A DNA stretch of 38,565 nt from a virus (lineage: Duplodnaviria > Caudoviricetes): IMG/VR virus record IMGVR_UViG_3300022200_000140, positions 1-38,565 of that record, one strand, 5' to 3'. The translations under genes were made by a program, and so were the position numbers. Each line of letters opens with the position of its first letter. Position 1 is the first letter of the stretch. The notes below the pieces were generated by a model. It was not told the origin of the DNA and searched no databases. It worked only from the letters and a program-made list of their open reading frames with translations. Shown in pieces: positions 7,729 through 35,383 of this stretch.

Positions 7729-8192
7729 ATGTTTCTCCTCGAATTTCTTAACCATAAAGTACTTACGTGAGATCTACTTATCCCGAAGAAGTCAGCCACC
7801 TTTTGTTGGGTGTTGCCCTTGGATAACATACCTCGTATCTCCATTACCTCGGAGTCACTTAGTTTTACTTTATAACTTGCCTTTCTTCCATTACGGAAAG
7901 CATGTTTTAAATTTTCGGAACTAGTGCACCACTCTAGGTTGGTCAATCTATTGTCGGACCTATCCCTATTTAAGTGGTTAACTTGGTATTTACTTGCGTC
8001 TTCTAGTGGAGAGAAGCTTAACATAACTAATCTATGGACTCGTTTGGTTTTTCTGTTTAAAGAGATATTTTTATACCCAGCTCCGTCATTAGATAACTTT
8101 CGGATAACCCCCGTTATACTGTTTACTACTCTACCCTGATTAGACACCTTATACCCAGGATGTTCTGGTATGATCCTCCACTCTTCGCTCAT
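7725..8192 (-). CDS. NUMOD4-HNH homing endonuclease with C-terminal HTH
   Basis: EEWRII...YKVSNQGRV (NUMOD4), VHRLV...VNHLN.DRSDNRLTNLEWCT..EN..H (HNH_3), TQQKVADFFGISRSHVS (HTH). Confidence 0.92.
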   Translation of the reverse strand: MSEEWRIIPEHPGYKVSNQGRVVNSITGVIRKLSNDGAGYKNISLNRKTKRVHRLVMLSFSPLEDASKYQVNHLNRDRSDNRLTNLEWCTSSENLKHAFRNGRKASYKVKLSDSEVMEIRGMLSKGNTQQKVADFFGISRSHVSTLWLRNSRRNI

Positions 8193-8764
8193 AAAAATAC
8201 CGCCCTCATAAATGATTTAACCCTTGTCCAAAAAGAACGTCTATACACTACTTTAGGGGCGATACCTAGTCTTGTTTTTATTCTATCCTTAACAAGATAA
8301 CCGAAACGGTAAACTACCGATTGCCTATCAGTACCAGGATGATCAAGTCCACAATTATGTAAGTACTCATGTGCTTGGTTTCCTGCTATATCCGCTAGGT
8401 CAAACCCTTTGAATATATTCCTATTGACCCACGTAAACCATGTTGATGGTAGCGTGTATCCAACTACACTTCTCCATGAGTAGTAGAAGGAAACTGAGAT
8501 ATCGATAGCATAATCTTTTTCTTTATTGAAATCATCAACACCAGATAAAACCATTTCTTTAAATAACTTAAACGATTGCTTCTCATAGTTGTAAGGTGCC
8601 AGCAATTTGCGGTGGTGCCAATTGTTGTACACCCTAGAAACATCATACCAGAAATCGGGATCATTTATTTCAAACTCAAACTCTTTAGCGGCGGCTTTAA
8701 ATGCTTCCGATTCTTTCTCAGTCGCCTTTTTAATGGCGTGTATTTTTACATTAGTTCTTTTCAT
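8189..8764 (-). CDS. Zinc metalloprotease (HExxHxxGxxH)
   Basis: AHEYLHNCGLDH metzincin-type zinc motif and a basic amphipathic C-terminus. Confidence 0.75.
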   Translation of the reverse strand: MKRTNVKIHAIKKATEKESEAFKAAAKEFEFEINDPDFWYDVSRVYNNWHHRKLLAPYNYEKQSFKLFKEMVLSGVDDFNKEKDYAIDISVSFYYSWRSVVGYTLPSTWFTWVNRNIFKGFDLADIAGNQAHEYLHNCGLDHPGTDRQSVVYRFGYLVKDRIKTRLGIAPKVVYRRSFWTRVKSFMRAVFL

Positions 8765-19032: not shown

Positions 19033-19044
19033 GTTCTAAGTCTC

Positions 19045-19287: not shown

Positions 19288-19300
19288 AATATATATCCTT

Positions 19301-19334
19301 TTTACTTCGTAGCCGTCCTATCATACACTGTCAA
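19301..19334. promoter_or_regulatory. Overlapping divergent sigma70-like promoters
   Basis: Plus strand TTTACT-17-TACACT (19301-19329). Minus strand TTGACA-17-TACGAA (starting at 19334). Confidence 0.55.
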
Positions 19335-19335
19335 C

Positions 19336-19743: not shown

Positions 19744-19780
19744 TGATATTACTCCCTAGGAACTCATTCTATTCGTTTGA

Positions 19781-20505: not shown

Positions 20506-20688
20506 TTAGTACTTCCCAACTTCATCAATATTGATATCGTTCATATCACAAATATGCTCAAGCATGGATTGTGCTTCATCCCACGACATCCCCACCACGA
20601 TCTCTTTTAACAGTGATTCAGGTGTAAAATACCCAGTACCTTGAAGGTCCAGCAATTTAGTTCTTGAGTCCTCACTTGATTTACTCAT
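20506..20688 (-). CDS. Small acidic hypothetical protein
   Basis: GAGG RBS, ATGA-coupled, 60 aa. Confidence 0.6.
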   Translation of the reverse strand: MSKSSEDSRTKLLDLQGTGYFTPESLLKEIVVGMSWDEAQSMLEHICDMNDINIDEVGKY

Positions 20689-20948
20689 TGAAACCTCGCT
20701 TTACAGGCATCTTTAAGATCTGTGTAAGTATCATCACCAAAATTCACGTCCTCAATATAGTACGTATCTGTTACCGGATTGATATAGCGATCGTTGACTG
20801 TAGTAATACACTTATCAATATCCGCATCACCATCACCGTAAAAATAGGTGGTATTGAATTGAATATCAGGTATTGATGCTGCGTCCAGGTTTGCGGATGC
20901 TGCAAAAATATTGGTGGTTATAAGTAAAAGTAATATCATTGTTTTCAT
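20685..20948 (-). CDS. Small secreted protein (signal peptide, 2 Cys)
   Basis: AAAGGA RBS before ATG 20948, MKTMILLLLITTNIFA|A. Confidence 0.7.
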   Translation of the reverse strand: MKTMILLLLITTNIFAASANLDAASIPDIQFNTTYFYGDGDADIDKCITTVNDRYINPVTDTYYIEDVNFGDDTYTDLKDACKARFQ

Positions 20949-20967
20949 ATTGGTGGTTCCTTTAAAG

Positions 20968-20993
20968 TAAAAATAAAGGGGACTCACGCCCCC
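20968..20993 (-). terminator. Intrinsic terminator
   Basis: Minus strand GGGGC-GTGA-GTCCC(C) hairpin followed by TTTATTTTT. Confidence 0.7.
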
Positions 20994-20998
20994 ATTGA

Positions 20999-21268
20999 TT
21001 ATTTAGACTCGTTAAGTAGTTTCTCATATCTCTTTTTAGCGGTGGCCAACTTCATAGCGTTTACTTCAGATTTAGGCATTATCCGTTTGGTGATGGTACA
21101 TTGAACTGCTAGCGCGTCTTGTATCTTTTGCGATACTGATACACCGTCGTCAGCATATGCGGTCTTCGCACCTTCTTTTTTAAGGCTTAAAGTTAATTTA
21201 CAAGCTGCAAATGATGAAGTTGTGATCGTAAGTAGTGCGATTGTTGCGATTGTTGCGATTGTTTTCAT
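20999..21268 (-). CDS. Small secreted basic protein (signal peptide, 2 Cys)
   Basis: MKTIATIATIALLTITTSSFA|A with an AGGA RBS. Confidence 0.7.
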   Translation of the reverse strand: MKTIATIATIALLTITTSSFAACKLTLSLKKEGAKTAYADDGVSVSQKIQDALAVQCTITKRIMPKSEVNAMKLATAKKRYEKLLNESK

Positions 21269-21310
21269 TGTTATACTTCCTAGGTATTAAGGCATTATTA
21301 CCTTATTTAT

Positions 21311-21496
21311 TTATTTAGTCTTTTCAAGTAGTATTAAGGAACCGTACTCGTATAGTACATTATCAAATAACTCGCACGTATCTTCAAAGTTAAGGTCTTT
21401 ATAGTCGTAATCTCTCTCGATTACTTCAATTGTCTTATTTATAACCTTGTCACTGACGTCACATACAAGTTTGATATTTTCAAAACATAACCACAT
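21311..21496 (-). CDS. Small acidic protein, first gene of the leftward early operon
   Basis: AAAGGAG RBS directly downstream of a strong promoter. Confidence 0.65.
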   Translation of the reverse strand: MWLCFENIKLVCDVSDKVINKTIEVIERDYDYKDLNFEDTCELFDNVLYEYGSLILLEKTK

Positions 21497-21527
21497 GTTA
21501 AACTCCTTTAAGGTGTTGTCTGAAAGT

Positions 21528-21556
21528 AGTATAGCGTATAATCGGGCGTATTACAA
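21528..21556 (-). promoter_or_regulatory. Strong sigma70-like early promoter
   Basis: TTGTAA-17 bp-TATACT on the minus strand. The -35 is overlapped by the inverted repeat tattaca...tgtaata. Confidence 0.65.
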
Positions 21557-21597
21557 CGCCTTGTGTAATATTTACATGTGGTGTTATAAAAATAAAA

Positions 21598-21891
21598 ATG
21601 TTTATATATAGAGTAAATGAGGAGTTTATTATCAAGTATGATTCTTTAAAGAGTATGGACAAGGCTTTGACTAATAAGAAGTCCCAGTTGAAGGCGCGAA
21701 TTATACATTTAATTATAAGAGGGTGGACTGATGGGGCCATTTGCGTTGAGGTGGGGTTAAACTACCACTTGTACCGTTACTATCTGACGAATATTAATAA
21801 AGGATTGCGTATACAACTATCACATGCACGTAGGTACAGGCGTACTTATAAGAAGGAACAGGAGCTACGTAAGATAAAGCGCAGGTTATGA
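21598..21891 (+). CDS. Basic protein with LuxR/sigma-region-4-like HTH (putative regulator)
   Basis: RIIHLIIRGWTDGAICVEVGLNYHLYRYYLTNINKGL fits a 'G.T...I...VG......Y...I...L' HTH, with an Arg/Lys-rich tail. Confidence 0.5.
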   Translation: MFIYRVNEEFIIKYDSLKSMDKALTNKKSQLKARIIHLIIRGWTDGAICVEVGLNYHLYRYYLTNINKGLRIQLSHARRYRRTYKKEQELRKIKRRL

Positions 21892-21921
21892 CGTACCATG
21901 CGACGTACCCGTACTATACAC

Positions 21922-22085
21922 ACGCGCGATGGCACATGTTCTACGTGGAACATACACGCACGCGCGTGATAACTACACATGAGTGACACAATACGCGCGC
22001 CCGATGACACGAGGGATAATGTAGGCAACACGCGCGCGCGATAACACTACGGGGATGCTTAATCTCAACGCGCGTATATAAGCAC
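21922..22085. repeat. Five spaced ACGCGCG-core repeats
   Basis: ACGCGCG occurs at 21922, 21960, 21993, 22030 and 22068 (spacing 38, 33, 37, 38). Most copies are followed by a GATRRCAC-like tail. Confidence 0.8.
21937..21952. promoter_or_regulatory. parS-like palindrome
   Basis: TGTTCTACGTGGAACA is one mismatch from the perfect palindrome TGTTCCACGTGGAACA, a common bacterial parS variant. Confidence 0.65.
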
Positions 22086-22125
22086 CCGGCACCCCAAAGT
22101 TGCGTGTCTATTTGTTGGAGTGCCG

Positions 22126-22245
22126 ACCCCAACACAGACAATGTAGAATTTAAGATATCTGATTGACACAGAGAGTTAGTGTGTAGTTCCTACCCCAACA
22201 CAGACAATGTAGAATTTAAGATATCTGATTGACACAGAGAGTTAG
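22126..22245. repeat. 54-bp perfect direct repeat x2 (22126-22179 and 22192-22245)
   Basis: accccaacacagacaatgtagaatttaagatatctgattgacacagagagttag occurs twice with a 12-bp gap. Confidence 0.93.
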
Positions 22246-22314
22246 ATGTAGTGGAGTTAGTAAGGCAATTTTATGTATTCGCTCCATTTGTTCTAAAGGG
22301 TTTGGTCTTTTAGG

Positions 22315-22343
22315 TTGCAAAAGTGTAAATGGGTTCCTATATT
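22315..22343 (+). promoter_or_regulatory. Sigma70-like promoter for the packaging/structural operon
   Basis: TTGCAA-17 bp-TATATT ending 10 bp before the terS ATG. Confidence 0.55.
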
Positions 22344-22353
22344 GGAATAAGGT

Positions 22354-22863
22354 ATGAGCAACAATCAATTAGTCGTAGACAAAAAGTTAGAGAGAATCGC
22401 GGTAGACGTACTTGATATGATCGCTGGTGGCGCAGATGAGCAGACTGTATGTGATCATTTTAAAGTTAAACGTGGAACATTCGTTCAGTGGATTATCCAA
22501 TATCCCCAATTTGAAAGTGCAGTAAAAGAAGCTAGAAAGCAGAGAGCTGATTCATTCAGGTCGATCATCCAGGATAGAATGTATGCTGATGAATTGGATG
22601 AAGATGATACGCCTACCGGTAAGAAGGTAATGCGTACTCTATATAAGGACGAAGTTCCTGGTGAGAAGTTAATCTTTGAGAAGTTGAAGTGGTTAGCTGA
22701 GATGGACAACCCTGAGAAGTACGGTACTAAAGTTAAACACGAAGGTGGTAATGTGATGCCAGTACAGATTGTGGTAGACACTGGTATCAAACAAGGACCC
22801 ACTACACCAGATGTTGTGGTTACTGAGAAAGTTGACGTTAAGTCTCCCATAGACTTATTATAA
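22354..22863 (+). CDS. terS: Terminase small subunit
   Basis: N-terminal HTH (IAGG.....VCDHFKV.RGTFVQWI), F......AR...AD, LKWLA...NPEKYG.K motif. Lies upstream of terL. Confidence 0.85.
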   Translation: MSNNQLVVDKKLERIAVDVLDMIAGGADEQTVCDHFKVKRGTFVQWIIQYPQFESAVKEARKQRADSFRSIIQDRMYADELDEDDTPTGKKVMRTLYKDEVPGEKLIFEKLKWLAEMDNPEKYGTKVKHEGGNVMPVQIVVDTGIKQGPTTPDVVVTEKVDVKSPIDLL

Positions 22864-22891
22864 ATAATTACACATTAAATAAGGAGCAAGT

Positions 22892-23383
22892 ATGACAGAT
22901 GTAACTGGGAAATCAGGAGTAGGTAAACGTGTACTAGATGATCATGGTAATTGGAGACCAGTAACTTCATTATCAAAAGAAATCCAAGATGAAATTAAAG
23001 TAGGTCAAAAAGCTGCTGCTGAACAATTCAGAGAGAAAGCATTAAGACATAATAAAGAATACCAAGACCACAAGGCTAAAGAATCTGAAGCTGGACTTAA
23101 GTCTGAGAATGATGATCTTAAAGCTATTATTAAAGAACAAGGTGAAATGTTAGCGAAAATTAACGCTAAGATGGAACTAGGTGCTACCGTTGCAAAAGAA
23201 GAAGTAGTTGTTGAAGGACCAAAAGTAGTTGTTGATATCCAACCAAAACCTTTAACTCCTAAGAAGAAACTTCAATTGGAAGCGGAAGATCTAGGTGTAG
23301 ACTTTGAAGAAATCACTACTATAGCGGAGCTCAAAGAACTTATCGAAGAAGCTAAAACAGAAGATGCTTTAAAAGACCTATAG
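22892..23383 (+). CDS. Hypothetical coiled-coil protein with C-terminal HeH/LEM-like motif
   Basis: AAGGAG RBS and a C-terminal 'LQLEAEDLGVDF......AELKELI'. Confidence 0.7.
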   Translation: MTDVTGKSGVGKRVLDDHGNWRPVTSLSKEIQDEIKVGQKAAAEQFREKALRHNKEYQDHKAKESEAGLKSENDDLKAIIKEQGEMLAKINAKMELGATVAKEEVVVEGPKVVVDIQPKPLTPKKKLQLEAEDLGVDFEEITTIAELKELIEEAKTEDALKDL

Positions 23384-23386
23384 TAA

Positions 23387-24829
23387 ATGTCTTGGTTAGG
23401 GAAGTATTCAGCGGATAAGGAATTGATGGACAATGGTCCAGAGATTTCTAGCATGGAACTTCCCTACAACCGGGAATTAAAGAAAGAGATTAAGAAGGTA
23501 TCCACTGGGTACATTCCAAGGCCATTACAAGCGGTCATCCATTCGCGATTAAAACGATTCAATGTTCTCGTTTGTCATCGTAGGTTTGGTAAAACTCTCC
23601 TAGTTATCAATGAGACGATTAACAAGGGGATAGCTAATCAAAAACATAATCCTCAATATGCCTACATAGCCCCAACCTACAAACAGGCGAAGATGATCGC
23701 CTGGGAATATATTGTAGATTCCACTTCAGAAATACCAGGAGTGAAAGTAAATAAGTCTGAATTGTCGGTCGAGATACTACGGGAAGGGATTAAGAACTCT
23801 TCAGGCGGTTGGGCCAAGAAACCAGACAAGATAAAGTTCATGCTTCTCGGGGCAGAGAACCCAGATTCAATTCGTGGTATTTACCTAGATGGTGCTGTCC
23901 TTGATGAGTACGCTCAATGTGATCCTGTTATTTGGGGTGAGATTGTTAGACCGGCTTTAGCAGATCGTAAGGGTTGGGCCATATTCATCGGTACACCAAA
24001 AGGACAGAATCATTTTTATAGACGGCTTGAGAAAGCTGACTCTTTACCAGAAACTTGGTTCACCGCTATTTATAAAGCATCAGAAACCGGAGTACTTCCT
24101 CAAGACGAATTAGAAGATATGATGTCTGATATGGAACCGGAAGAAATAGAGCAAGAACTTGAATGCTCCTTCCATGCTGCCGTTAGGGGATCGTACTACG
24201 GTGAAGCCCTACGTGAAATGGAAGATGGGGACGGTGATCAAATCGGTTATGTTCCATGGAATCCAAGATATCCTGTCGATACACATTGGGATATTGGTAT
24301 TGGGGATTCGTGTGGGATTGTATTCCGTCAAAAAGTCCACGGTATTTGGCACTACATAGATTATATAGAATCGAATGGTAAAGGTGTCGATTGGTTCATT
24401 AAAGAACTTGAACGGAAACCGTACTCTTATGGTCGACATGTTTGGCCCCATGATGGGAAGAATAGGGATTTTATCACTGGTCAAACTAGACTTGAAGTAG
24501 TTAGGGAATTAAAACCTGGCTGGGAGTGGGAAGTTCAAACCAAACAATCGGTCGATGATGGTATCCAAGCAGTACGTACTCGGTTGAAAACATCTAGGTT
24601 TGATGCTCAAAAATGTGCTAGGCTTCTTGACTGTCTTAAGAACTATCAACGAGAATGGGATTCAAAATTAATGTTATTCCGGAATAAGCCAAAACATGAT
24701 TGGGCTTCTCACGGGGCAGATGCTTTTAGGTACGATGCCTTAGATGACAAAGATACTAAGGAATTGAAGATGCGTAGGGATAACTTGCCACGCACAGCCA
24801 ATAGCGATTATAATGAATTAGAGTATTGA
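23387..24829 (+). CDS. terL: Terminase large subunit
   Basis: PRPLQ, VCHRRFGKT Walker A, APTYKQAK, RGIYLDGAVLDE, IGTPKG, WDIG..D nuclease motif, HDWASHGADAFRY. Confidence 0.96.
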   Translation: MSWLGKYSADKELMDNGPEISSMELPYNRELKKEIKKVSTGYIPRPLQAVIHSRLKRFNVLVCHRRFGKTLLVINETINKGIANQKHNPQYAYIAPTYKQAKMIAWEYIVDSTSEIPGVKVNKSELSVEILREGIKNSSGGWAKKPDKIKFMLLGAENPDSIRGIYLDGAVLDEYAQCDPVIWGEIVRPALADRKGWAIFIGTPKGQNHFYRRLEKADSLPETWFTAIYKASETGVLPQDELEDMMSDMEPEEIEQELECSFHAAVRGSYYGEALREMEDGDGDQIGYVPWNPRYPVDTHWDIGIGDSCGIVFRQKVHGIWHYIDYIESNGKGVDWFIKELERKPYSYGRHVWPHDGKNRDFITGQTRLEVVRELKPGWEWEVQTKQSVDDGIQAVRTRLKTSRFDAQKCARLLDCLKNYQREWDSKLMLFRNKPKHDWASHGADAFRYDALDDKDTKELKMRRDNLPRTANSDYNELEY

Positions 24830-24848
24830 CTTTAGAAAAGGATTGTAT

Positions 24849-25283
24849 ATGGGTTTGGGTAGTTTTTTTGGTGGTAAGGATATTGATTTACTAGGAAGTA
24901 ACAAGGGGAAAAACGACTTTTTCGCCAAACCTTTTGGGGTTGGTTCAGGAAGTGCGAGTGAGTTTTTCAGTCCTACGAACAGAGATGTAGGTGCCGCTAG
25001 ACATACATTCACTGGTTTTGATCCAAAGGAATTGGCAAACTTCCAAAAAGCTGCGGGTGGGATAGCTTCATCAAAGAAAAGAGTTGATGTTGATAGCCTG
25101 GCACCTAAAGAAAAATCACTAAGCGTAACCACACAAGAATTTAATAGACAATTAAGGGAGGGCAAAACTCTCTCAGTAACAGAAGATCAAATGAAGGGAT
25201 TCGTATCTGCTTTTACTCTTAGACAAGATGAAGTTTTTGGTAAACGAGCAAAACCAGGATTATCCCAAACAAGGCTAGTGTAA
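24849..25283 (+). CDS. Hypothetical (probable virion) protein upstream of portal
   Basis: AAAGGA RBS, Gly-rich N-terminus MGLGSFFGG, TAATG-coupled to the portal gene. Confidence 0.65.
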   Translation: MGLGSFFGGKDIDLLGSNKGKNDFFAKPFGVGSGSASEFFSPTNRDVGAARHTFTGFDPKELANFQKAAGGIASSKKRVDVDSLAPKEKSLSVTTQEFNRQLREGKTLSVTEDQMKGFVSAFTLRQDEVFGKRAKPGLSQTRLV

Positions 25284-26893
25284 TGAAGATAAAACAAGAT
25301 AAGTCAATAACCGAGCAACATATCAAAAGATATAAGGCCGCTAAGAGTAAAAGGACAAACTGGGATGAACACTGGAGAGACGTTGCTAGATATGTTATCC
25401 CAAATAAAGAAAACGTCTTCGATTATAAGTCCAGAGCAAAAGGCGATAAGAAAGGTCTTCGACTCTATGACTCTTCAGCAGCTCATTTCAACGAATTGCT
25501 CGCGTCCGCTCTACACTCAATGCTCACAAATCCGTCAGTACAATGGTTTGAGCTTACGACGGGAAATAGAGAAATCGATAAGAACCCAAAAGTTAGAGAC
25601 TACTTACAGAAGACTGTTCGGCGTATCCATCAAATACTCAACAATACGAATTTCCAAACTGAAATCCACGAGCTCTATCTAGACCTTGGGTCTTTCGGTA
25701 CCGGGGCCATGTTAATAAGTGAAGATGATGAAAACATAATCACGTTCAGCTCAAGACCAATATACCAATTTTATATTGAAGAGAACTTCAAACACGAAGT
25801 GGATACATTTTTTATAGAAATGCCCATGAGTGCAAGACAGTTAATTCAAAAGTATGGCGAGGAAAATTTATCGGACAAGTTTTGCAAAATTTGCAAGGAA
25901 AAACCGGACGATACGCATAACGTCATAATGATGGTCACTCCAAACACTGACCGTGACATAAAACGAAAAGACTCTAAAGGTAAAATATATAGCTCCCTCC
26001 ACATATACGAGAAGGAAGGACTTATATTAAAAGAAGGTGGCTTTGATGAGTTCCCTGCAGTATTCCCTAGATGGATGAAAGACTCCATGGAAGTATACGG
26101 TCGATCTCCTGGTATGAAAGCACTTCCAGAGATTAAGATGATCAACGCTATGATGAGAACGATTATTCGTGCAGCTCAAAAAATGGTTGATCCCCCTCTT
26201 ATGATTCCTGATGATAGCTTCATGAATTTCAATACAAAGCCAGGTGGATTAAACCCATATAGATCGGGAACACAAGATAAGGTGTACCCAATAGAGATTA
26301 GAGGACAAATCGGAATAGGGATGGAAATCCTTCGTGATACTAGAGAAAGGATTAAAGAGTCTTATTTCATAGATCAACTTCAACTTCGTGAAGGTCCACA
26401 AATGACCGCCACTGAAGTAAATGCTAGGACCGATGAACATTTACGTTTATTAGGACCGATCTTAGGAAGACTCCATTTTGAACTACTCCAACCATTAATA
26501 GTGAGAATTTTGGGTATATTAAAACGTAAAGGTGAATTACCTGACAATCCTCCTCAAGAATTACAAGGTCAAGGGATTGAAGTCTTTTATTCTTCTCAAA
26601 TTGCAAAAGCTCAGAAAATGTCTGAAGGAAATAACTGGAATAGATTCTTATCTTCGGTCGCTCCACTTGCGGAATTTGATCCTAGTGTAATGGATAATTT
26701 AGATTTAGATGGGGTAGTAGCCTACTTAGCGGATATTTATGGCTCCCCTCAAGATACTATGAAGGAACCTAAAGAAGTTAAAAAAATAAGACAAGCTAGG
26801 GAACAACAACAACAAGAAATGCAGCAAGCCCAAATGGATCAAGCTCAAGCTGACACTATGGATACAACGGCGAGCGCAGTAAGTAAGGTGTAG
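25283..26893 (+). CDS. Portal (head-tail connector), T7 gp8/BPP-1-like
   Basis: YDSSA....LASAL...LT.P...WF.L, FGTG, RW....EVYGRSP...ALP, MTATEV..R..E....LGP..GRL..E.L.PLI. Confidence 0.95.
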   Translation: MKIKQDKSITEQHIKRYKAAKSKRTNWDEHWRDVARYVIPNKENVFDYKSRAKGDKKGLRLYDSSAAHFNELLASALHSMLTNPSVQWFELTTGNREIDKNPKVRDYLQKTVRRIHQILNNTNFQTEIHELYLDLGSFGTGAMLISEDDENIITFSSRPIYQFYIEENFKHEVDTFFIEMPMSARQLIQKYGEENLSDKFCKICKEKPDDTHNVIMMVTPNTDRDIKRKDSKGKIYSSLHIYEKEGLILKEGGFDEFPAVFPRWMKDSMEVYGRSPGMKALPEIKMINAMMRTIIRAAQKMVDPPLMIPDDSFMNFNTKPGGLNPYRSGTQDKVYPIEIRGQIGIGMEILRDTRERIKESYFIDQLQLREGPQMTATEVNARTDEHLRLLGPILGRLHFELLQPLIVRILGILKRKGELPDNPPQELQGQGIEVFYSSQIAKAQKMSEGNNWNRFLSSVAPLAEFDPSVMDNLDLDGVVAYLADIYGSPQDTMKEPKEVKKIRQAREQQQQEMQQAQMDQAQADTMDTTASAVSKV

Positions 26894-26894
26894 G

Positions 26895-27218
26895 ATGGAC
26901 GAACAGCAAAAGGAAATGGCCCAGGCAAAAGTAAGCCTGGTGCAAGATTATTTACACCTATTCGATAGTGATGAGGGGAAGAGAGTTCTCCTCGATCTTA
27001 TGGAAAAGGGCCACATTTTAAAACCAACTTCCTCAGTAAACGGTGATAGGCACTCAATACTAAATGAAGGCAAGCGGGAACTTGTCCTCTATATAATGGA
27101 TATGGTCACTTATAATGTGGAAGACATTATGGATTTAATAGGAACACAGACACAAAAAACAAAAAAAGGAGGAAGTAGTGAGGAAAATGAAAAACTTTTC
27201 AATTATTTCGATGATTAA
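26895..27218 (+). CDS. Conserved post-portal protein (Bbp19-like)
   Basis: Y..LF.SDEGKRVL.DL and NEGKRELVLYI motifs. Confidence 0.8.
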   Translation: MDEQQKEMAQAKVSLVQDYLHLFDSDEGKRVLLDLMEKGHILKPTSSVNGDRHSILNEGKRELVLYIMDMVTYNVEDIMDLIGTQTQKTKKGGSSEENEKLFNYFDD

Positions 27219-28110
27219 GAATGAAAGAGGAAGCTTCATGGGCAGCGGCAGCGAAGGTGGCGGTGATTCTGGTGATGGCGGCGGTGATTCAGGTGGAGAT
27301 CTTGGTACTGGTGGCGGTGAACCAGGCGGGATCGAATATTCATACCCTGAAGGATTTGATGAAACACTTAAAGGAAATGCTACCCTTTTAAAGTTTGCAG
27401 ACGATAAAGGCCAATTTAACGTACCTAAAATAATGAAATCTTTGGTTCATGCTACTGGTATGATTGGTAAAGATAAGGTAACACTTCCAGACGAAACTTG
27501 GACAGAAGACCAGTACAGCGATCTTTACAATAAGTTAGGTCGTCCGGCAGATATAAAAGAATATGGCGTTGAAAACAATGTGCCCGATAACATTGAGGCT
27601 AATAAAGAGTTTTTTGATAGTTTTAAAGATGCTGCTTATACTGCTGGTCTAGCACCAAAACAGGCGCAGGCAATGTCCAACTTCATGAATGATTTTCTTG
27701 GACAATCCGTGGCAAAAAATAATGAAATGTCTCAAATCGCATATAATGCAGACTTAACTTCTCTTAAGAACGAGTGGGGCGATGCCTACGAAAGAAAGAC
27801 TCAGCGGGCTTTTTCAGCTTTAGAGCAATTTGCATCTAAAGAAGAAATCGCAGGAATGAAGTCAAAAGGACTTTTGGACAGCTCTTTAGTAACTAAGCTG
27901 TTCGATAAAGTGGCCGAAGGAATGTCCGAGGATTCTCTTCAAGTAAAAGGCGGGAATACTTTTGGACTTACTTCAACCGAAGCTGCTTCAGAAATAGAAA
28001 AATACTACGTGAAAGGACACCCTTTCATGACTCAAGGACACCCAGAAAGAAAATTTTACCAAGAAAAGATGATGAAACTACAAAGAATCAAATTAGCTGG
28101 TAGAAGATAG
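27187..28110 (+). CDS. Capsid scaffolding protein
   Basis: Located between portal and capsid. Contains Y.KLGRP....Y, GL...QA, L..EWG..Y and HP motifs plus a Gly-rich N-terminal linker. ATG 27187 follows GAGG. Confidence 0.85.
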   Translation: MKNFSIISMIKNERGSFMGSGSEGGGDSGDGGGDSGGDLGTGGGEPGGIEYSYPEGFDETLKGNATLLKFADDKGQFNVPKIMKSLVHATGMIGKDKVTLPDETWTEDQYSDLYNKLGRPADIKEYGVENNVPDNIEANKEFFDSFKDAAYTAGLAPKQAQAMSNFMNDFLGQSVAKNNEMSQIAYNADLTSLKNEWGDAYERKTQRAFSALEQFASKEEIAGMKSKGLLDSSLVTKLFDKVAEGMSEDSLQVKGGNTFGLTSTEAASEIEKYYVKGHPFMTQGHPERKFYQEKMMKLQRIKLAGRR

Positions 28111-28117
28111 TACGTAC

Positions 28118-28146
28118 AAGTAGGCGCTCCCACGTCTACTTTTTTT
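28118..28146 (+). terminator. Intrinsic terminator after scaffold gene
   Basis: aagtaggcg-ctccca-cgtctactt hairpin followed by a T-run. Confidence 0.75.
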
Positions 28147-28147
28147 C

Positions 28148-28177
28148 TTGACACTGGCGGGCATGACCCTTTAAACT
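28148..28177 (+). promoter_or_regulatory. Sigma70-like promoter for the major capsid gene
   Basis: TTGACA-18 bp-TAAACT immediately after the terminator. Confidence 0.6.
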
Positions 28178-28313
28178 GGAATTACATCCTCTACAGGAAA
28201 CTCCTTACGGACCCAATAATGGTAGAGATTAGGTAGAACCCTTTTGGACACTTCTCCGAGATAAATGTTTTATTTAATTTTTTATTATTAACCAGGGCAA
28301 GGAGAACTACCCC

Positions 28314-29303
28314 ATGAAATTACTAAATATGTTAATCAGTTTCTTCAATATGTTAGGTCAAAGAGGATCTTTCGAAATTGATGAAGCTTTTGTTGAAACG
28401 TACAAATCAAACATCTATATGCTTTCTCAGCAAATGGATGCCAGACTAGCTAGAAGCTGTCGTCAAGAACAACAAGGTGGAGAGACAGATTACTACGAGA
28501 GATTAGGTCTAGCGGAAGCTAACAAGATTACTGATCGTCACGGTGATACTGTTCACTCAAACACTCCTCACACAAGAAGAGCTGTAGATCTTGAAGAAGC
28601 AGATTACTCTGATCTTATCGATAAGATGGATAGAGTTAAATTACTTATCAACCCAGACGATGCTTATGTTAAAGCTGCTGTTATGGGTATCAATAGATAC
28701 AAAGATGATGTTTGGATCGCGGCTGCTCTTGGTAATGCAAGAAGCGGGAAGAAAGGAACAGTTAATGTTGCACTTTCTTCAGGCCAAAGAATCGGAGCTA
28801 CAAACGGTACAGCTTCAAGTGGGCTTAACGTTTTCACTCTTACTATCGCTCTTGAAAAATTTGATTCAAACGATGTTGATGAAGATATCCCTAAGTACCT
28901 TGCTTACTCTGGTAAACAAAAGCAAAACTTATTGAATGAAACAGAAGTTACCTCTGCAGATTACAATACTGTAAGAGCTTTAGTTCATGGTGAAGTAGAT
29001 ACTTTCATGGGATTTAAATTCCTTAGATCTGAAAGACTTCCGGTCACCTCTGCTTCTATTACATCATTTGTTGCTGCTACAGGAGCAATCACTGGTGGGT
29101 CTGATACGATCGCCGCTGGAGCAAGAAGATGTATTGCTTGGGCCGAAGATGGAATGATCTTTGCAACTGGTATCGATATGATCGTTAGAGTTGATGAACT
29201 TCCAACTAAGAGATATTCAACTCAAGTATATGCTGCTCACCAAGTTGGTGCTGTACGTATGGAAGAAGAAAAAGTTGTTGAGATTCTTTGTTTAGAAGCA
29301 TAA
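28314..29303 (+). CDS. Major capsid protein (BPP-1/T7-supergroup-like)
   Basis: SFEI..AFV..Y..N...L.QQ...RL, TPH.RR, D..D....LI.P, S.DY.....L..G....FMGF.F, GA.R.EE.KVV. AAGGAG RBS. Confidence 0.93.
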   Translation: MKLLNMLISFFNMLGQRGSFEIDEAFVETYKSNIYMLSQQMDARLARSCRQEQQGGETDYYERLGLAEANKITDRHGDTVHSNTPHTRRAVDLEEADYSDLIDKMDRVKLLINPDDAYVKAAVMGINRYKDDVWIAAALGNARSGKKGTVNVALSSGQRIGATNGTASSGLNVFTLTIALEKFDSNDVDEDIPKYLAYSGKQKQNLLNETEVTSADYNTVRALVHGEVDTFMGFKFLRSERLPVTSASITSFVAATGAITGGSDTIAAGARRCIAWAEDGMIFATGIDMIVRVDELPTKRYSTQVYAAHQVGAVRMEEEKVVEILCLEA

Positions 29304-29320
29304 TCAACAAATAATTAGTA

Positions 29321-29345
29321 ACGGTGGTTTCTAGGAGCTGCCGTA
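29321..29345 (+). other. Intergenic stem-loop after capsid gene
   Basis: acggtggtt...agctgccgt pairs with G-U wobble pairs. There is no U-tract, so it may be a stabiliser or processing site. Confidence 0.45.
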
Positions 29346-29373
29346 AACTTAAATTTTAAATTGGAGAAATATT

Positions 29374-29835
29374 ATGGCATCTTTATCTGGTGTAAATTAT
29401 ACAAAAGAAACTGCCTCACCAAAGGCAAAAATTGAGAATGGCGAGGTTTTCGGATCTGTTCATTACCTTAGAGAAGAGTACGCTTTAGCTGGTGCAGTAC
29501 TTGCTATCGGCGATACTATCACTGGTCCAATGCTACCAAAAGGCGCAAGAGTTCTTGATGCAGCTGTTAAGATTGATGCTACTTTAGGTACTGGCGGGAT
29601 TCTAGATCTTGGATACCAAGCTTCTGCTGATGGACTTGAAGTTGCTGATCCTAACGCATTTGTTCTTCAAGCTGATGGTGGTGGTGCTGCTGTTTTAGCG
29701 AAAGCTGCTATCGGAAGTGCTGGTCTTGATAAGAAGTTTCTAGCGGCTGTTAGAACTGAAGCGATCATGACTGAAGCCTCTACAGCAACAACTGGTGTAA
29801 CAATCAGTTTTTGGATTACTTACGTAATTAATTAA
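29374..29835 (+). CDS. Capsid decoration/cement-like virion protein
   Basis: Directly after the capsid gene, GGAG RBS, Ala/Gly-rich beta protein with GD.I....LP.GARV.D and LDLG motifs. Confidence 0.65.
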   Translation: MASLSGVNYTKETASPKAKIENGEVFGSVHYLREEYALAGAVLAIGDTITGPMLPKGARVLDAAVKIDATLGTGGILDLGYQASADGLEVADPNAFVLQADGGGAAVLAKAAIGSAGLDKKFLAAVRTEAIMTEASTATTGVTISFWITYVIN

Positions 29836-29842
29836 TTAATAT

Positions 29843-29860
29843 GGGAGAGGAAACTCTCCC
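29843..29860 (+). terminator. Hairpin/terminator after head genes
   Basis: gggagag-GAAA-ctctccc stem with a GNRA loop, extendable by atat/tatat. Confidence 0.6.
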
Positions 29861-29876
29861 TATATAAAAGGTTTTA

Positions 29877-30461
29877 ATGGCAACATCTAAGATAGATATC
29901 TGTAATTCTGCGCTCTCTAAAATAGGCGTAGAGAAGATAGCGTCTTTTGCCCAAACATCTAAAGCCTCTGTCCTTTGTAATCTCCAGTATGACAAAATAC
30001 GTAGGAAAGTTCTTCGTGAACACTTATGGAATTTTGCTGTAAAAAGAGCTTCATTGGCCAAACTTGTAGCCGTTCCCTTATTTGGGTATGGAGCTGCATT
30101 TCAATTGCCCGCAGATAACCTTTTACCTATTGAAGTCGATATCGACGACGATTGGGAAGAAGAGGGTCAAACCATTCTGATAAATAGTTCTACTTGCCAA
30201 CTAAAATACATATATGATGTGACCGATGTTTCACTTTTTGACGTTGTTTTTGAGGAAGTTCTTGCCTACATGCTGGCTGCTGAACTTGCTTACCCGTTAA
30301 AACAAAGCACCGGGCTTAGTGAATCTATGGCGGTAAAAGCCGACCTTGCTTTACGTAACGGAAGATTCTACGATGCTAAGATTGGAAGAACAAGTAAAAC
30401 TAGAAAGCTCCAAGCCGATGTGTGGCTTGATGCTAGAGTAACTGGATTGGATGCGGATTAA
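29877..30461 (+). CDS. Tail tubular protein A (adaptor, T7 gp11-like)
   Basis: IC N.AL.KIG...I, Y...R..VLR.H.WNFA.KR..L, FQLP.D, F...LA..LA.ELA.PL. Confidence 0.88.
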   Translation: MATSKIDICNSALSKIGVEKIASFAQTSKASVLCNLQYDKIRRKVLREHLWNFAVKRASLAKLVAVPLFGYGAAFQLPADNLLPIEVDIDDDWEEEGQTILINSSTCQLKYIYDVTDVSLFDVVFEEVLAYMLAAELAYPLKQSTGLSESMAVKADLALRNGRFYDAKIGRTSKTRKLQADVWLDARVTGLDAD

Positions 30462-32746
30462 TGACAAAATTTACCACGGTTTACAATAACTTTTCAGGCG
30501 GAAAGGTTTCTGAGAAATTTAAGGGTCGTTTCGACTTGCCTGCCTACCAAAATGGCCTAGAAGAAATGGACAACATGCTCCCTGATAAGATAGGTGGGGC
30601 CTTTAAAAGAACTGGTACAATTCAGATCGCTGACATTACTTCTACATTGGCTTCTACGTCAGGGAATGCGTATCGTCCTAGCTATAGAGGGATACCCTTT
30701 CAAGCCGGGGACGGTGAAAGTTACATAATTTATCTAACCTCCCATACTATAACGATGGCAAATTTCGCCACCTACTTACATATTTTCCATAATGATCGTA
30801 CTAAAGCTGCCAACATTTACGGTGCCACAGAAATAACCGCTAGAGATAGGGGTGATACATGGACTCCAAATACAGCTACCCTTAGTACTTTCGGCGGAAA
30901 TCATGCTTGGAATTATTGCCAGGTAGGGGATTTACTTTTTCTTACCCACGTTTCGGGGGAGCAACGTCCTTTAGTAATTACTAGAACGGCGGTAGATGCT
31001 TTCGATATAAATTATGTTGATCAATACACTACCAATAATGCGGGTATGAGTCAGACTTTACTGGTTCCTATGAGTGAACCAAATCTTAGTGCTATTACAT
31101 TAACCCTTGTTGGGTCTACGCTTACTGCCAGTGCAGCTCTTTTTAATTCCTCAATGTCCTCAAGCCAGACACTTTTTGCGGTAGAATCTGCCGGGTCGAC
31201 AAGAGTATTAATAGTAACGGCGATAACCTCCACTACAATAGTTACTGTTTCCAATGTTATTGGTTCAGGAGATATCACGGCCACTGATGATTGGAGAGAA
31301 TCACTATGGAGAAATCCTACTAATGCTACCCTTTCTATTGTTGGACATGGTTGGCCCAAATCAGTAGCATATCAAAATCAAAAACTATTATGGGGAGGGA
31401 ACTTAAGCTTCCCCGATACAGTATGGGCTTCCTTAACAGGAAATTTATTCCACCTAAATTCAGTTAGGCTTACCCAGGATGCCTCCACTGATTCATCAGG
31501 GCTTAACTTCTTTGGCGAGCTCCAAGTGGGTACGGATCCTTTCTCCCTTCCGGTAGGTTCTACCGAGTCAAATGCTATCCAATGGATGACAGGCGGCAGA
31601 GTTCTAACAGTCGGAACTACAGGTGGAGAGTACCTAATAAAAAATATTGGGTTGGATACCCTTACCATTGAAGCAAACTCAAACTACGGCTCTTCATCAT
31701 ACCAAGCTATTCGAATGGGTAAAGATATCGTATTCGCAGGGGCCACACGAAGAAACTTTAGAACTTATAGATATTCCGATGAAAACGGATCGTGGGTTTC
31801 TGATGATTTATCCGTAAAACTAGATGATTTCAATGATGGTAACTTCACAAGTACGCCTTACTCTAAAAACGTGCTGGATTTTACATGGAACGCTGAACAT
31901 AAATTACTATTCGTTGCTATGAGCAACACTCTATACGTACTAGGTAATGATCCTGAATATGGCATAAATGGCTGGTCCACTGTCACTCTAGGTATAGAAA
32001 CGGGACATACTACTTCCGTAATATCGGTCACTAGTCTTAAAAACACCATTGGAGATATTGAAGAAGTATTCCTACTGGTTAGAAGAAATGATGGTTCTTC
32101 TGATTCCTACTTTATTGAAAAACTAACGATCCCTTATTATGAAACTAGTTTGAAAATAGACCCATACGTATACTCATCAACAACTGGTTATTACAACAGT
32201 ATGAACAACATGCCTAGGTTTTTGGACTTAGCTGTGCATGAACAAGCAGATGGTTCCGGTATTGTCACTGGTTTAGATGTGGCTTTCATTGGCAGGGTAG
32301 TTACGGCCACTTATTTCAGCACCACCACCTTTGGGTACGTTGATGATATCGATATCATTACAGATGGTGCTGGTGGGTCTAAATTAGACTACACTTTTGC
32401 TGCCTCAGAATACGTTATATTTGGCTACAAATATGTCTCCAATATTAAGACATTACCTCCTGAAGCTGGGGGACAATTCGGCTCATCTATGGGGGATATT
32501 AAGCAGATCCATGAATCCTACTTAAAACTTTATAGAACTAAGAATTTCTCTATAGGGTCTATTGATAAACGAAGCCAAACTGACCTTTCTTTTGAAGATG
32601 TAGAATATGATGACCTAACCACGACCGACCAAAGGATTCAGTTAATGGATAATCCGGATACGGATGGGCAAATTGTGATTAGAAGTACTACCCCAACACC
32701 ACTTAACATATTAGCGTTAGTGAGTAAGGGGATAGCTTATGATTAA
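30461..32746 (+). CDS. Tail tubular protein B (nozzle, T7 gp12-like)
   Basis: NFSGG..S....GR.DL..Y..G.....N......GG...R.GT, GWP......Q.L.WGG....P..VW.S..G, L.VGT.GGEY. Confidence 0.88.
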   Translation: MTKFTTVYNNFSGGKVSEKFKGRFDLPAYQNGLEEMDNMLPDKIGGAFKRTGTIQIADITSTLASTSGNAYRPSYRGIPFQAGDGESYIIYLTSHTITMANFATYLHIFHNDRTKAANIYGATEITARDRGDTWTPNTATLSTFGGNHAWNYCQVGDLLFLTHVSGEQRPLVITRTAVDAFDINYVDQYTTNNAGMSQTLLVPMSEPNLSAITLTLVGSTLTASAALFNSSMSSSQTLFAVESAGSTRVLIVTAITSTTIVTVSNVIGSGDITATDDWRESLWRNPTNATLSIVGHGWPKSVAYQNQKLLWGGNLSFPDTVWASLTGNLFHLNSVRLTQDASTDSSGLNFFGELQVGTDPFSLPVGSTESNAIQWMTGGRVLTVGTTGGEYLIKNIGLDTLTIEANSNYGSSSYQAIRMGKDIVFAGATRRNFRTYRYSDENGSWVSDDLSVKLDDFNDGNFTSTPYSKNVLDFTWNAEHKLLFVAMSNTLYVLGNDPEYGINGWSTVTLGIETGHTTSVISVTSLKNTIGDIEEVFLLVRRNDGSSDSYFIEKLTIPYYETSLKIDPYVYSSTTGYYNSMNNMPRFLDLAVHEQADGSGIVTGLDVAFIGRVVTATYFSTTTFGYVDDIDIITDGAGGSKLDYTFAASEYVIFGYKYVSNIKTLPPEAGGQFGSSMGDIKQIHESYLKLYRTKNFSIGSIDKRSQTDLSFEDVEYDDLTTTDQRIQLMDNPDTDGQIVIRSTTPTPLNILALVSKGIAYD

Positions 32747-32758
32747 CGGGAGAATATA

Positions 32759-33202
32759 ATGGCAATTCCTTTAGTAGCGGCAATGGCGGGAACGACTATA
32801 TCCGCATGGGGTAAATACAAAGCGGGTGAAGCTGAAGCAGGGGCTTTTAAGGGTTCTGCAATAGCCAAACGTAGGGCAGCAAAAGACTTAATTAAAAGAT
32901 CAGATATGAACTCTGAGTTCACTAGGTTATCTGGTGAAACATTCAAGGGTAAACAGATAGGGGCCTTAGCTGATTCTGGTATCGATGTTGGATCCGGTTT
33001 CGCCCTTGCAGTACTGGAAGACACTGGTAAAAAAATAGAAAGACAAATACTGGTTGACGAAATGGAGGCCGAAGCCCAGAGAGACATGCTCCTATTGGAA
33101 GCGGATCTCGATTGGGATAGAGCAAAAGCAGCAGACACGGCCGGAAAAATGAGCGCATTCAGTTCCATGGCCGGCGGGTTTATGAGCGCAGGAGCTAAAT
33201 AG
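32759..33202 (+). CDS. Small internal virion (ejection) protein, T7 gp14-like position
   Basis: Ala/Gly-rich hydrophobic ends and a 'G.Q....A.SG.D.GSG....V' motif. Confidence 0.7.
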   Translation: MAIPLVAAMAGTTISAWGKYKAGEAEAGAFKGSAIAKRRAAKDLIKRSDMNSEFTRLSGETFKGKQIGALADSGIDVGSGFALAVLEDTGKKIERQILVDEMEAEAQRDMLLLEADLDWDRAKAADTAGKMSAFSSMAGGFMSAGAK

Positions 33203-35383
33203 ATGGCACGAATACCTACATTATCGGATGCTCCTAGAGTATCTACCAGAGCGAACATATCTCCCACTCAAAGACCTGGAGAGGCAGGAGCTGGTTTTAG
33301 ACAAGTATCACAAATAGCTGGTCAAATGGGTGAAGGTTTAATGAATCTTAGGAGGAAGCAAATAGCTGAGTCCAATAAGGTAGCTTATACTAAATCCAAT
33401 ATTGAACTCTCTAAAAACTTCAATGATCTTGATAGAGAAATGGAAGAAGAATACAGATCTAACAAACCAAACTTCGACGGGTACGCTGAAGATGGAATGG
33501 AACGATTGAATCAGAGAAGGGATTCTATTTTAGAAAAGGCTCCTGAATCTGCTAGAGACTCGATAAACCTGGCATTTGATGAGAAAATGGCAAAGATGGA
33601 GAGTAGATTTCAAAATAAAGAATCTTTCCAAAAATCACAATACGCTACCTTTGAAACCAAGAATCAACTTAAGTTAGCTTCTCAGGACTCGTACCAAACG
33701 GCAGATCCTATTGAAGTAATGAATAAGATGAATAATCTAGCGGTATCCGTAGAAAGTTCTTCCCTATTCGATGCTAGGGGTAAAGCAGTACTACGTAACC
33801 AGATAAACGAACTACCTAAAGATATGTTGAATGGTGTCCTTGATAGGGAAAATACCGCTGAAATGAAGGAAGTTCTAGATTCTATGGATGATCCTGTTAT
33901 GGGAAGAGTCTATGGACAAATGGATCCTAAAGTAGTTACCAAAGCTAAAACTAGCCTTGAACGTAAACTTAAGTATAAGGAAACCGAAGGGATTAATGAA
34001 GTAAAAGGTAAATATTCTGACGGGATTACTGGTCTGAGTATGGGTACTTTAAAGCCTAAAAACCCAGAACATAAACAAATACTAACCAATTTAAAAAATG
34101 AAATCGGCACCAAGATGGGTGAGTCTGGTCGGGAGTTAATAGCTAATATCGAGGCGCACGAAGCAGCTTCTAATTTATTAAGCGAACATGCTTTCGACGT
34201 ACATAAGGTTGACTCGAAGGTTTCTGCCTCAGAAATATCTTCTGGTATCAGCGACCCCCTTCAACAAGCTGCCAGTAAAGGTAGGGTCGGTAAGATCATA
34301 GAGTCTCAAAGACAAACTATGTTGAAAGACATGAAAGATGATCCTGCTAATTACATAGCTAAAAACGATTCTGGTGTAGCTTTAAGTGCTAGAGAGATGG
34401 TGGCAACAAAAAACCCTAGAGCTTACAATGACATGATGAACGCTATGAACTCAAGATATGATCAGATGGGAACTCCTGTAAATCAAAGAGAGTTCATGTC
34501 AGCACCTATAAAGAACCACTTTGAAGGATCTTTTAAAACATTTATTACTAATGGTGATCATAAAAGTGCTGAAGCTCTTATCGCTGATTTCGACACTATG
34601 ACAAACGGTGCCGGGCACAAACACTTTGACGAATTAGATATTCCAAAAGAATACGCTGTAGTTTCCGAATTACCTGATAAGCAAGATAGATTAAACGCTG
34701 TGAAAAACTTGATGGATACTGAACTTAAAGGAGCTTACGATCTAAGAAGATTGGACTCAAATTTAAAAGAGGGAGATATCAAAGTTGATCTTTCGAGACA
34801 TCCTATCCTAGAAGCGATGTCCGTACAAGATGGCGGTACTAGGGCTGGGGCTCAACATACTAAAGCTATGTACGATACCGTTTATAATGAGTACAAAAGA
34901 GTAGTTGTGACCAACCCTAATATGGATCACAAGACAGCTATTAAAGAAGCCTGGAAAGGTTTCGAGAAAAGGTACGTTACCCTTAAATCAAGGGGAGGCA
35001 CTATACCTATAAGCAGAAAACATAATACTGTTAACACTCAGAATTTTATAGATACATACACATCGGGTGCAGATTTCACTAAGGATTTTGACATTAGGTT
35101 GCCGAAAAAACCAAGCGGGATTTCTACTACTAAAGAAGAAATGAACGATTCCTTAAAAACAGAGGGTCGTTGGGTCTATAACCGTAAAGCCGAGGGACTT
35201 ACCTTAATGGGTAGGAACGATCTTGGGAGGTATGGCCCTGTTTTTGATAATAAGGGGAAACCTGTAATAAGAACTTTTGAACAAATAAATAATGAAGTCT
35301 ACACAAACGATGTGAAAAAAGAGAAAGCAAGAAAGTTTGATGAGTTTGTGAAAAAACGTAGCGGTAGAGGGAGAGATCTGTAA
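33203..35383 (+). CDS. Internal virion (ejection) protein
   Basis: MARIPT start typical of this position, long alpha-helical protein, 726 aa. Confidence 0.7.
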   Translation: MARIPTLSDAPRVSTRANISPTQRPGEAGAGFRQVSQIAGQMGEGLMNLRRKQIAESNKVAYTKSNIELSKNFNDLDREMEEEYRSNKPNFDGYAEDGMERLNQRRDSILEKAPESARDSINLAFDEKMAKMESRFQNKESFQKSQYATFETKNQLKLASQDSYQTADPIEVMNKMNNLAVSVESSSLFDARGKAVLRNQINELPKDMLNGVLDRENTAEMKEVLDSMDDPVMGRVYGQMDPKVVTKAKTSLERKLKYKETEGINEVKGKYSDGITGLSMGTLKPKNPEHKQILTNLKNEIGTKMGESGRELIANIEAHEAASNLLSEHAFDVHKVDSKVSASEISSGISDPLQQAASKGRVGKIIESQRQTMLKDMKDDPANYIAKNDSGVALSAREMVATKNPRAYNDMMNAMNSRYDQMGTPVNQREFMSAPIKNHFEGSFKTFITNGDHKSAEALIADFDTMTNGAGHKHFDELDIPKEYAVVSELPDKQDRLNAVKNLMDTELKGAYDLRRLDSNLKEGDIKVDLSRHPILEAMSVQDGGTRAGAQHTKAMYDTVYNEYKRVVVTNPNMDHKTAIKEAWKGFEKRYVTLKSRGGTIPISRKHNTVNTQNFIDTYTSGADFTKDFDIRLPKKPSGISTTKEEMNDSLKTEGRWVYNRKAEGLTLMGRNDLGRYGPVFDNKGKPVIRTFEQINNEVYTNDVKKEKARKFDEFVKKRSGRGRDL

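Follow-up and report, generated by a model that had tools for sequence, protein, structure and literature searches.

A conserved glycine-ending leader on the scaffold and capsid proteins of a phage clade, and its possible removal by a host prepilin peptidase

The head genes and their leaders

The window examined here is the whole of IMG/VR record IMGVR_UViG_3300022200_000140, a phage record of 38,565 bases rated complete, and our subject is a short leader at the N-terminus of both the scaffolding protein and the major capsid protein it encodes, the last leader residue being an invariant Gly. One strand bears terminase, portal (PF12236), a Bbp19-like gene, scaffold, capsid (PF19821), tubular tail and internal virion genes; the opposite strand bears primase, polymerase A, exonuclease, SNF2 helicase and amidase. 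The features of the two head genes are as follows.

27178..28110, + strand: scaffolding protein gene (phrog_3742, E 5.7e-35; phrog_458, labelled "protease", E 8.7e-9); predicted all-helical body behind a disordered Gly/Asp-rich linker, no protease fold
27178..27231, + strand: scaffold leader, 18 residues from GTG 27178 or 15 from ATG 27187, its last residue the invariant Gly (27229-27231); from the reading frame and homologues
27226..27240, + strand: AGAGGA within the Arg-Gly codons, 6 nt ahead of internal ATG 27238; possible second scaffold start without the leader
28314..29303, + strand: major capsid protein, PF19821 (Phage_capsid_2), HK97-type fold
28314..28367, + strand: capsid leader, 18 residues, predicted helix at 3-12, ending in the invariant Gly (28365-28367); leaderless relatives have their start Met at the Gly position

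The capsid protein matches PF19821 with 234 bits (cut-off 25; E 2.8e-69), the match running from residue 22 as model position 1, and Foldseek matched it to 8i4l (E 3.5e-15); a solved structure of a close relative was sought and none was found. By capsid, the nearest isolated phages are Pelagibacter HTVC010P-like, at no more than 43% identity among the matches listed (40 of 145 records). A replication core is common to eight larger records, which therefore form a coherent clade.

An earlier note on this DNA, made from the letters alone, had described two leaders ending (N/G)(E/Q)RG and followed by SF. Both were recovered in matching frames when the window was re-read: the scaffold leader ends N-E-R-G, then S-F, and the capsid leader, from ATG 28314, ends G-Q-R-G, then S-F-E-I-D. 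The note had also given each leader a proper ribosome-binding site. A Shine-Dalgarno (SD) core does precede nearly all leader starts (see below), but the scaffold start was placed at ATG 27187, and GTG 27178, three codons upstream, is more probably used, to judge from its surroundings. GGAGG sits 5 nt upstream of the GTG, versus GAGG just 3 nt before the ATG, and the resulting leader of 18 residues equals in length that of a relative, L082 (L, G and P numbers are our handles). The scaffold motif lies downstream of either candidate start.

Conservation of the leader as coded protein

Of the 120 best among 3,089 capsid homologues, 55 carry Gly and 62 carry Met immediately ahead of the conserved S-F/N-x-I capsid start, the remaining three being fragments or shortened. 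Capsid leaders vary in length from 10 to 65 residues, yet a spacer between Gly and capsid body is present in none of the 55. The Gly thus stands in for the initiator Met of homologues, which upholds the earlier description of the capsid leader as an add-on ending exactly at Gly. Preferences extend to either side of it: P4 is mostly G (17), S (14), N (13), E (5) or D (4), P3 is Q (34) or E (13), and P2 is R (33) or K (6), while Phe stands at +2 in 52/55 leader capsids versus 30/62 leaderless ones, counts uncorrected for kinship. On the scaffold side, a Gly leader was found in 20 of 26 homologues from a word search and in 35 (two borderline) of the best 150 cluster representatives from 22,328 profile matches, 29 of these 35 being among the 44 top-ranked new ids. 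Other virion proteins appear not to be tagged, because a loose motif scan of 1,468 open reading frames (ORFs) in 18 genome sets gave 23 rows, of which 20 were scaffold or capsid.

The scaffold motif might be merely an SD sequence for an internal start, the leaders being mis-called extensions. AGAGGA in the window, 6 nt before ATG 27238, makes a second, leaderless scaffold start possible, and of the 13 scaffolds, among 19, that have an internal Met, 7 carry an SD-like core ahead of it. The other 6 of the 19 have no internal Met, however, and the capsid gene lacks a start codon at the Gly. Of 36 leaders read at the DNA level, 35 have an SD core ahead of the upstream start, and the codons vary synonymously, with Gly encoded by GGA (19), GGT (8), GGG (6) or GGC (3) and Arg by codons of five kinds. 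Translation from the internal Met, which the earlier note had named as an outcome fatal to its idea, is thereby largely refuted as a general explanation and may be set down as highly improbable; a minor second start is possible in some phages. As read from these sequences, the leader is under selection as protein, its sharing by the two genes is not chance, and that it is real seems to us very nearly certain.

Scaffold leader versus capsid leader

Loci in which both genes could be read were counted by eye, with duplicates merged. Twelve loci have Gly leaders on both proteins; in seven the scaffold has a Gly leader and the capsid starts at Met, and in three the capsid has a Gly leader and the scaffold another hydrophobic leader; a Gly-leader capsid next to a leaderless scaffold occurred at none of the loci read. 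Co-conservation of the motif in both genes, the check proposed in the earlier note, thus holds in part: in 12 of the 19 loci with a Gly-leader scaffold both carry it, but 7/19 have a Met-start capsid and 3/15 Gly-leader capsids accompany the other scaffold leader. A FastTree tree was built from 142 leader-trimmed capsids (16 loci missed in extraction are absent from it). It requires no fewer than 17 changes of the capsid leader, 12 of them forced by well-supported branches, gain and loss being indistinguishable. By these comparisons the scaffold leader is the more constant of the two. The leaders of one phage's scaffold and capsid are no more alike than leaders across phages (p 0.16-0.90; 12 pairs, 7 after thinning), as expected if one broad host enzyme acts.

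A second scaffold leader type is widespread: it consists of a short basic-hydrophobic stretch with Met, Phe or Arg as its last residue, then an acidic Gly-rich linker. It was seen in L168, L170, L099/G005, L225, L242, L257, L263, L278, L285 and L302, and in P0187, P0203, P0235, P0252, P0292 and others. Some of these leaders resemble the Prp site and others grade into the Gly type; the L302 capsid carries a leader of the second type of its own.

Physical character of the leader

The leader body is 55% large hydrophobic residues, 12% Lys/Arg and 2.5% Asp/Glu. In the pooled set (86 of 90 leaders were long enough), the helical moment at 100 degrees stands at z 6.6 against shuffles, with none at 160 or 180 degrees, and so the leaders are amphipathic as a group, as had been claimed, while individual leaders mostly fall short of significance. 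AlphaFold predicts a helix at capsid residues 3-12 with a low-confidence link after it, and scaffold residues 1-46 as disordered. In eight capsid leaders there is an uncharged 15-residue stretch of membrane-spanning hydrophobicity, and a finished head could hardly keep such leaders in hundreds of copies. The flanks of these eight are more positive on the C-side, as for a cytoplasmic C-side, in four, even in one and reversed in three.

The capsid leaders of P0003, P0014, P0034, P0075, P0076, P0084, P0090, P0100 and P0103 have 31-65 residues, with a signal-peptide-like hydrophobic segment first and then an amphipathic part and the Gly site. Features of Sec signals and signal peptidase I sites (uncharged H-region, A-x-A), judged without a predictor, were not seen in the window leaders; the long capsid leaders of P0014, P0034, P0075 and P0076 open with an uncharged stretch of this kind ahead of the Gly site.

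Resemblance to prepilin cut sites

The earlier note had likened the leader ends to those of prepilins. A matrix for P6 to P1 was made from 90 non-redundant phage leaders, by the same logic as in the discovery of Prp (PMC9405229). It was applied to 800 kb (20%) of the 4.0 Mb Bdellovibrionota genome G094, scoring each Gly that lay no more than 45 residues from a plausible start. G094 serves as a stand-in for a host genome and belongs to the same phylum as a metagenome-assembled genome (MAG) titled Pseudobdellovibrionaceae. The sample consisted of 40 stretches, two of them picked for Flp matches, and pilin-like sites were labelled by downstream residues alone. Six of the 12 pilin-like sites ranked 1, 2, 3, 5, 6 and 7 of 4,166 Gly sites (p 5.5e-10). 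A capsid-only matrix put five, and a scaffold-only matrix six, pilin-like sites into the top 1%, versus none for control matrices from ten other conserved capsid Gly columns. The top-scoring host sites in the examined part of G094 are pilins, with no other recurring class. The P6-P1 residues thus single out prepilin sites, as the likeness drawn in the note would have it. Among sites taken from selected loci rather than from all pilins, pilin leaders of five Bdellovibrionota genomes (48 sites) have a median score of 7.4, with genome medians of 4.3 to 9.4, and those of five MAGs of other groups (47 sites) a median of -0.3, with genome medians of -5.9 to 3.5, which do not overlap those of the Bdellovibrionota.

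Of the attributes of class III signals, the phage leaders show shortness, an ending in Gly and prepilin-like residues before it. The leaders are nonetheless not class III signals as far as their composition tells, for their hydrophobic part lies before the Gly and not after it; at best they would work like prepilin leaders without being members of that class.

Candidate enzyme

No gene for a prepilin peptidase (family A24) was found in the 18 clade and near-clade records (E <= 10; six records at least 90% complete), while 12 of 14 control genomes were positive, and no ORF with several transmembrane segments and a GxGD motif was found in the clade; a phage-encoded A24 enzyme was rejected on both counts. 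Nor is there a prohead-protease gene among the annotated genes of the head module. In the four Bdellovibrionota genomes tested, A24 genes are present in all (two each in G094, G186 and G408, one in G100), and the incomplete Bacteroidia MAG discussed below has none. Prepilin peptidases are membrane-embedded, cut off cytoplasmic leaders (PMC10790768) and have been described as promiscuous (PMC12075869). An A24 enzyme would suit both the motif and the place of action, a cytoplasmic leader at the membrane.

The earlier note had offered a phage metalloprotease as an alternative cutter, and we tested its gene as that of a maturation enzyme:

8189..8764, - strand: HExxH zinc-peptidase-like accessory gene; judged unlikely as the maturation enzyme

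A single-query search found it in 1/26 records (four metagenome loci lay outside the search), a profile of 14 homologues matched in G000 and G001 alone, and a motif scan added a distant member in G002 and, in G013, one of different appearance. In G004, G005, G008 and G009 (95-100% complete) there is no HExxH ORF of at least 90 aa, and G004, G008 and G009 have Gly leaders all the same. Absence of the gene from these four near-complete relatives makes the proposal unlikely. Most of the 14 homologues share a conserved basic amphipathic C-terminal tail. The scaffold itself, as a protease in the sense of the phrog_458 label, was likewise rejected, its model being all-helical with no PDB match at E <= 0.001. 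Since no phage A24 was found, the HExxH protein is confined to few relatives and the scaffold's "protease" label is unsupported by the model, a host enzyme is the simplest reading.

Host of the phage

The same phage occurs as a free contig of 38 kb in a MAG titled Bacteroidia (L241). We treat this placement as mis-binning because SD use there is far below the phage's, the SD core standing before 5% of 110 genes of the MAG versus 39-72% across eight phage sets; codon distance does not tell this MAG from G094 (0.64 vs 0.61). A DNA search with window positions 18600-38565 in 238 genomes of G094's class gave nine weak matches, none in a repeat array, and searches of that class with polymerase and scaffold found four and four genomes, with no Gly-leader head module. 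No spacer (positions 18600-38565 of the window) or prophage link emerged from these searches. The fibre N-domain, found in 22/301 Bdellovibrionota genomes and 18/150 other Bacteroidota, is no pointer to the host because it is present in both phyla. Among the few groups tested, the style of the leader favours a Bdellovibrionota host.

Proposed mechanism and alternatives

The reading that we prefer, and to which we would give a probability of about one half, is that the leader binds the membrane and is cut by a host prepilin peptidase. The leader of scaffold and capsid, as a predicted amphipathic helix, would bind the cytoplasmic face of the inner membrane, and a host A24 enzyme of the PilD or TadV type would cut after the Gly, leaving the capsid with the same Ser N-terminus that leaderless relatives obtain through Met removal. 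This would be a class III signal turned round: the anchor before the Gly would be discarded and a soluble cytoplasmic protein freed; in pilins the anchor follows the Gly and is retained. The task of nucleating prohead assembly at the membrane, or of setting its timing, would fall to the scaffold leader, and the capsid leader would be an option acquired or dropped on many occasions. What we infer here is that translation begins at the upstream start, that the leader binds the membrane and is cleaved, and which enzyme cleaves it; a cut after the Gly we consider likely, and that a host A24 enzyme makes it an evenly balanced proposition. More tentatively, this clade of phages with short tails, whose hosts are probably predators of the Bdellovibrionota, may have hijacked the host's prepilin peptidase as head-maturation protease through a reversed class III signal, with proheads started on the inner membrane and freed by the pilus-processing enzyme.

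Several results weigh against this reading. The other six pilin-like sites of G094 rank only from 155 to 2,223, two of them being false labels by eye. Neither window protein has the PilFind core of four uncharged residues and then Asp or Glu at +5 (PMC3244431); among leader capsids Asp does stand at +5 in 24/55, but Glu stands at +3 in 30/55. The two proteins carry three and four charged residues at +6 to +19 and have no hydrophobic helix after the Gly, an absence that the earlier note had itself flagged as a caveat; 14 uncharged residues after the site marked every true pilin of the PilFind training set (PMC3244431). We met no account of an A24 substrate lacking a downstream uncharged stretch, and found no Pfam pilin family in the first 40 residues, and only chance matches (best E 0.15) of a whole-leader hidden Markov model to five genomes. 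Just four of the eight strongly hydrophobic capsid leaders have the more positive C-side flank, and the capsid leaders of P0014 and P0034 resemble Sec export signals, which are ill-suited to a cytoplasmic cut. The leaders of related scaffolds shade into a different hydrophobic kind that has no fixed Gly, and 3/15 phages pair such a type with a Gly-leader capsid. A Bdellovibrionota host, too, is a deduction. Nor need a cut, if real, be what matters, since phage 80alpha is viable without leader cleavage (PMC5744158).

The cut might instead be made after the Gly by another host protease reading a similar site, either a Prp-like enzyme with some other host substrate or another membrane protease. 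The exact exchange of Met for Gly argues for a cut and not for a particular enzyme, no H-domain follows the site, and the Phe bias at +2 hints at recognition past the site of a kind unlike that of pilins. However, the best host sites in the examined part of G094 are pilins, and the leaders do not carry the Prp-type motif, L27-like and ending in Phe followed by Ala (PMC9405229). P4 in the phage leaders is polar or Gly. The rhomboid motif needs a large hydrophobic P4, which counts against that family also, and altogether we think a different host protease unlikely. About as doubtful is a leader that is never cut, its helix serving folding, membrane contact or contact between scaffold and capsid, with the Gly as a helix cap. 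Such a role would agree with the AlphaFold helix at capsid 3-12 and its low-confidence link, with the hydrophobic leaders without a fixed Gly on many scaffolds of the family, and with the viability of 80alpha bearing uncleavable scaffold and capsid (PMC5744158). An uncut cap, though, needs neither the zero spacer seen in 55/55 capsids nor pilin-like P4-P2 residues, and leaders of 45-65 residues with membrane-spanning stretches would be hard to fit on each capsid subunit.

A cutter encoded by the phage, whether the HExxH protein, the scaffold or an unrecognised gene, is very improbable. The HExxH family is zincin-like (M35 and M85 are its neighbours in Atlas features, at 0.86-0.87, which is no more than a lead) and has the amphipathic tail, and its gene occurs in G000, G001 and, distantly, G002, each with both leaders. 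Besides its absence from relatives with Gly leaders, it sits among replication genes on the opposite strand, the scaffold model has no protease match, and the conserved core contains no annotated protease, though four of its ORFs are without assignment.

Comparison with known systems

The closest parallel is 80alpha, which the earlier note had aptly chosen as its analogy. Like the gp46 scaffold and gp47 capsid of 80alpha, the phages studied here have a short N-terminal leader on both proteins, no phage prohead protease and apparent mimicry of a host substrate (PMC5744158, PMC9405229). In both systems, too, the scaffold leader is the weightier: in 80alpha it is essential and the capsid leader dispensable, and the dissection of 80alpha and Prp still called the leader's role unclear (PMC5744158). 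The differences are that P1 is Gly here and Phe in 80alpha, that the leader here is amphipathic and at times membrane-spanning, that the substrates mimicked would be prepilins here and ribosomal protein L27 there, that the candidate enzyme here is a membrane aspartic protease, and that the capsid here is PF19821 (HTVC010P-like). With the class III signals of type IV and Flp/Tad pilins the leaders share an invariant Gly, P4-P2 of the N/D-E/Q-R/K type and a site near the N-terminus (PMC3244431, PMC10790768), but beyond the Gly they lack both the hydrophobic helix and the canonical acidic motif at +5; their hydrophobic part comes ahead of the Gly, and the product would be soluble and cytoplasmic. 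Membrane-linked virion assembly would recall the T4 prohead and the f1 coat, the leader of the latter being removed by a host peptidase; T4, however, anchors through its portal chaperone and has its own protease, and the f1 coat is a transmembrane protein (PMC3185693). The same 2011 review states that prohead membrane association had not been shown for phages other than T4. Unlike HK97 and T4, the phages here have no protease gene that we could find in the head module.

In open-access full texts, a search outside which most subscription papers lie, we found nothing published on the processing of head proteins of tailed phages by prepilin peptidases. The leader system is, on present sequences, real, conserved and related in kind to 80alpha/Prp, and it is apparently undescribed. 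Processing of head proteins by a host protease is established for 80alpha/Prp, and the present clade would be a second, independent solution; its natural variation (a scaffold leader with or without a capsid leader, and swaps to the other leader type) makes the purpose of the scaffold leader testable. If an A24 peptidase does the cutting, a downstream hydrophobic helix can no longer be held a requirement of prepilin peptidases, hosts mutated in the peptidase would stop such phages at assembly besides adsorption, and the leader sequence becomes a pointer to the hosts of a large uncultured group. A reversed signal, if true, would also mean a new class of A24 substrate, soluble, cytoplasmic and without an H-domain, and would tie phage assembly to the piliated state of the host.

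Other features of the genome

The interval between the two head genes contains what may be control signals for the capsid gene.

28118..28147, + strand: terminator-like hairpin and T run 3' of the scaffold gene, from the sequence
28148..28177, + strand: putative sigma70-like promoter for the capsid gene, its TTGAC unchanged in 7/7 close relatives
28180..28313, + strand: conserved 5' untranslated region and SD sequence (AGGAG, 28300-28304) ahead of the leader ATG, kept in relatives

Within the untranslated region, 28180-28300 (+) holds two GGACAC/GGACCC-like blocks, so that a regulatory site is possible; the consensus structure is weak (-6.6 kcal/mol, double change in 3/20 pairs, seven sequences), with no Rfam match. 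Phage DNA was present in 11 sequencing runs, all of aquatic or freshwater metagenomes, with no RNA run among those listed. tRNA genes were looked for in the window and none was found, and an Atlas search with ORF 20999-21268 gave no match above 0.80. The replication module contains three NUMOD4-HNH homing endonuclease genes (7725-8192, 10072-10563 and 17028-17729, - strand). Upstream of the portal, the gene at 24843-25283 (+) has homologues in 12/18 sets that share little except a C-terminal motif ending basic-hydrophobic.

A large C1q-bearing fibre-like protein (825-5531, +), encoded directly downstream of the tail-fibre anchor gene, has a Sec-like signal at its start (825-884). Its homologues in G001, G002, G004, G005, G008, G009, G011 and G013 have a Sec-like start as well, all judged by eye, and the small late ORFs 5531-5971 and 6697-7047 also look exported. 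Finally, L099/G005 (L314 near 15000-15900) has a 269-aa gene between scaffold and capsid, with what we take to be a metallophosphoesterase-like motif.

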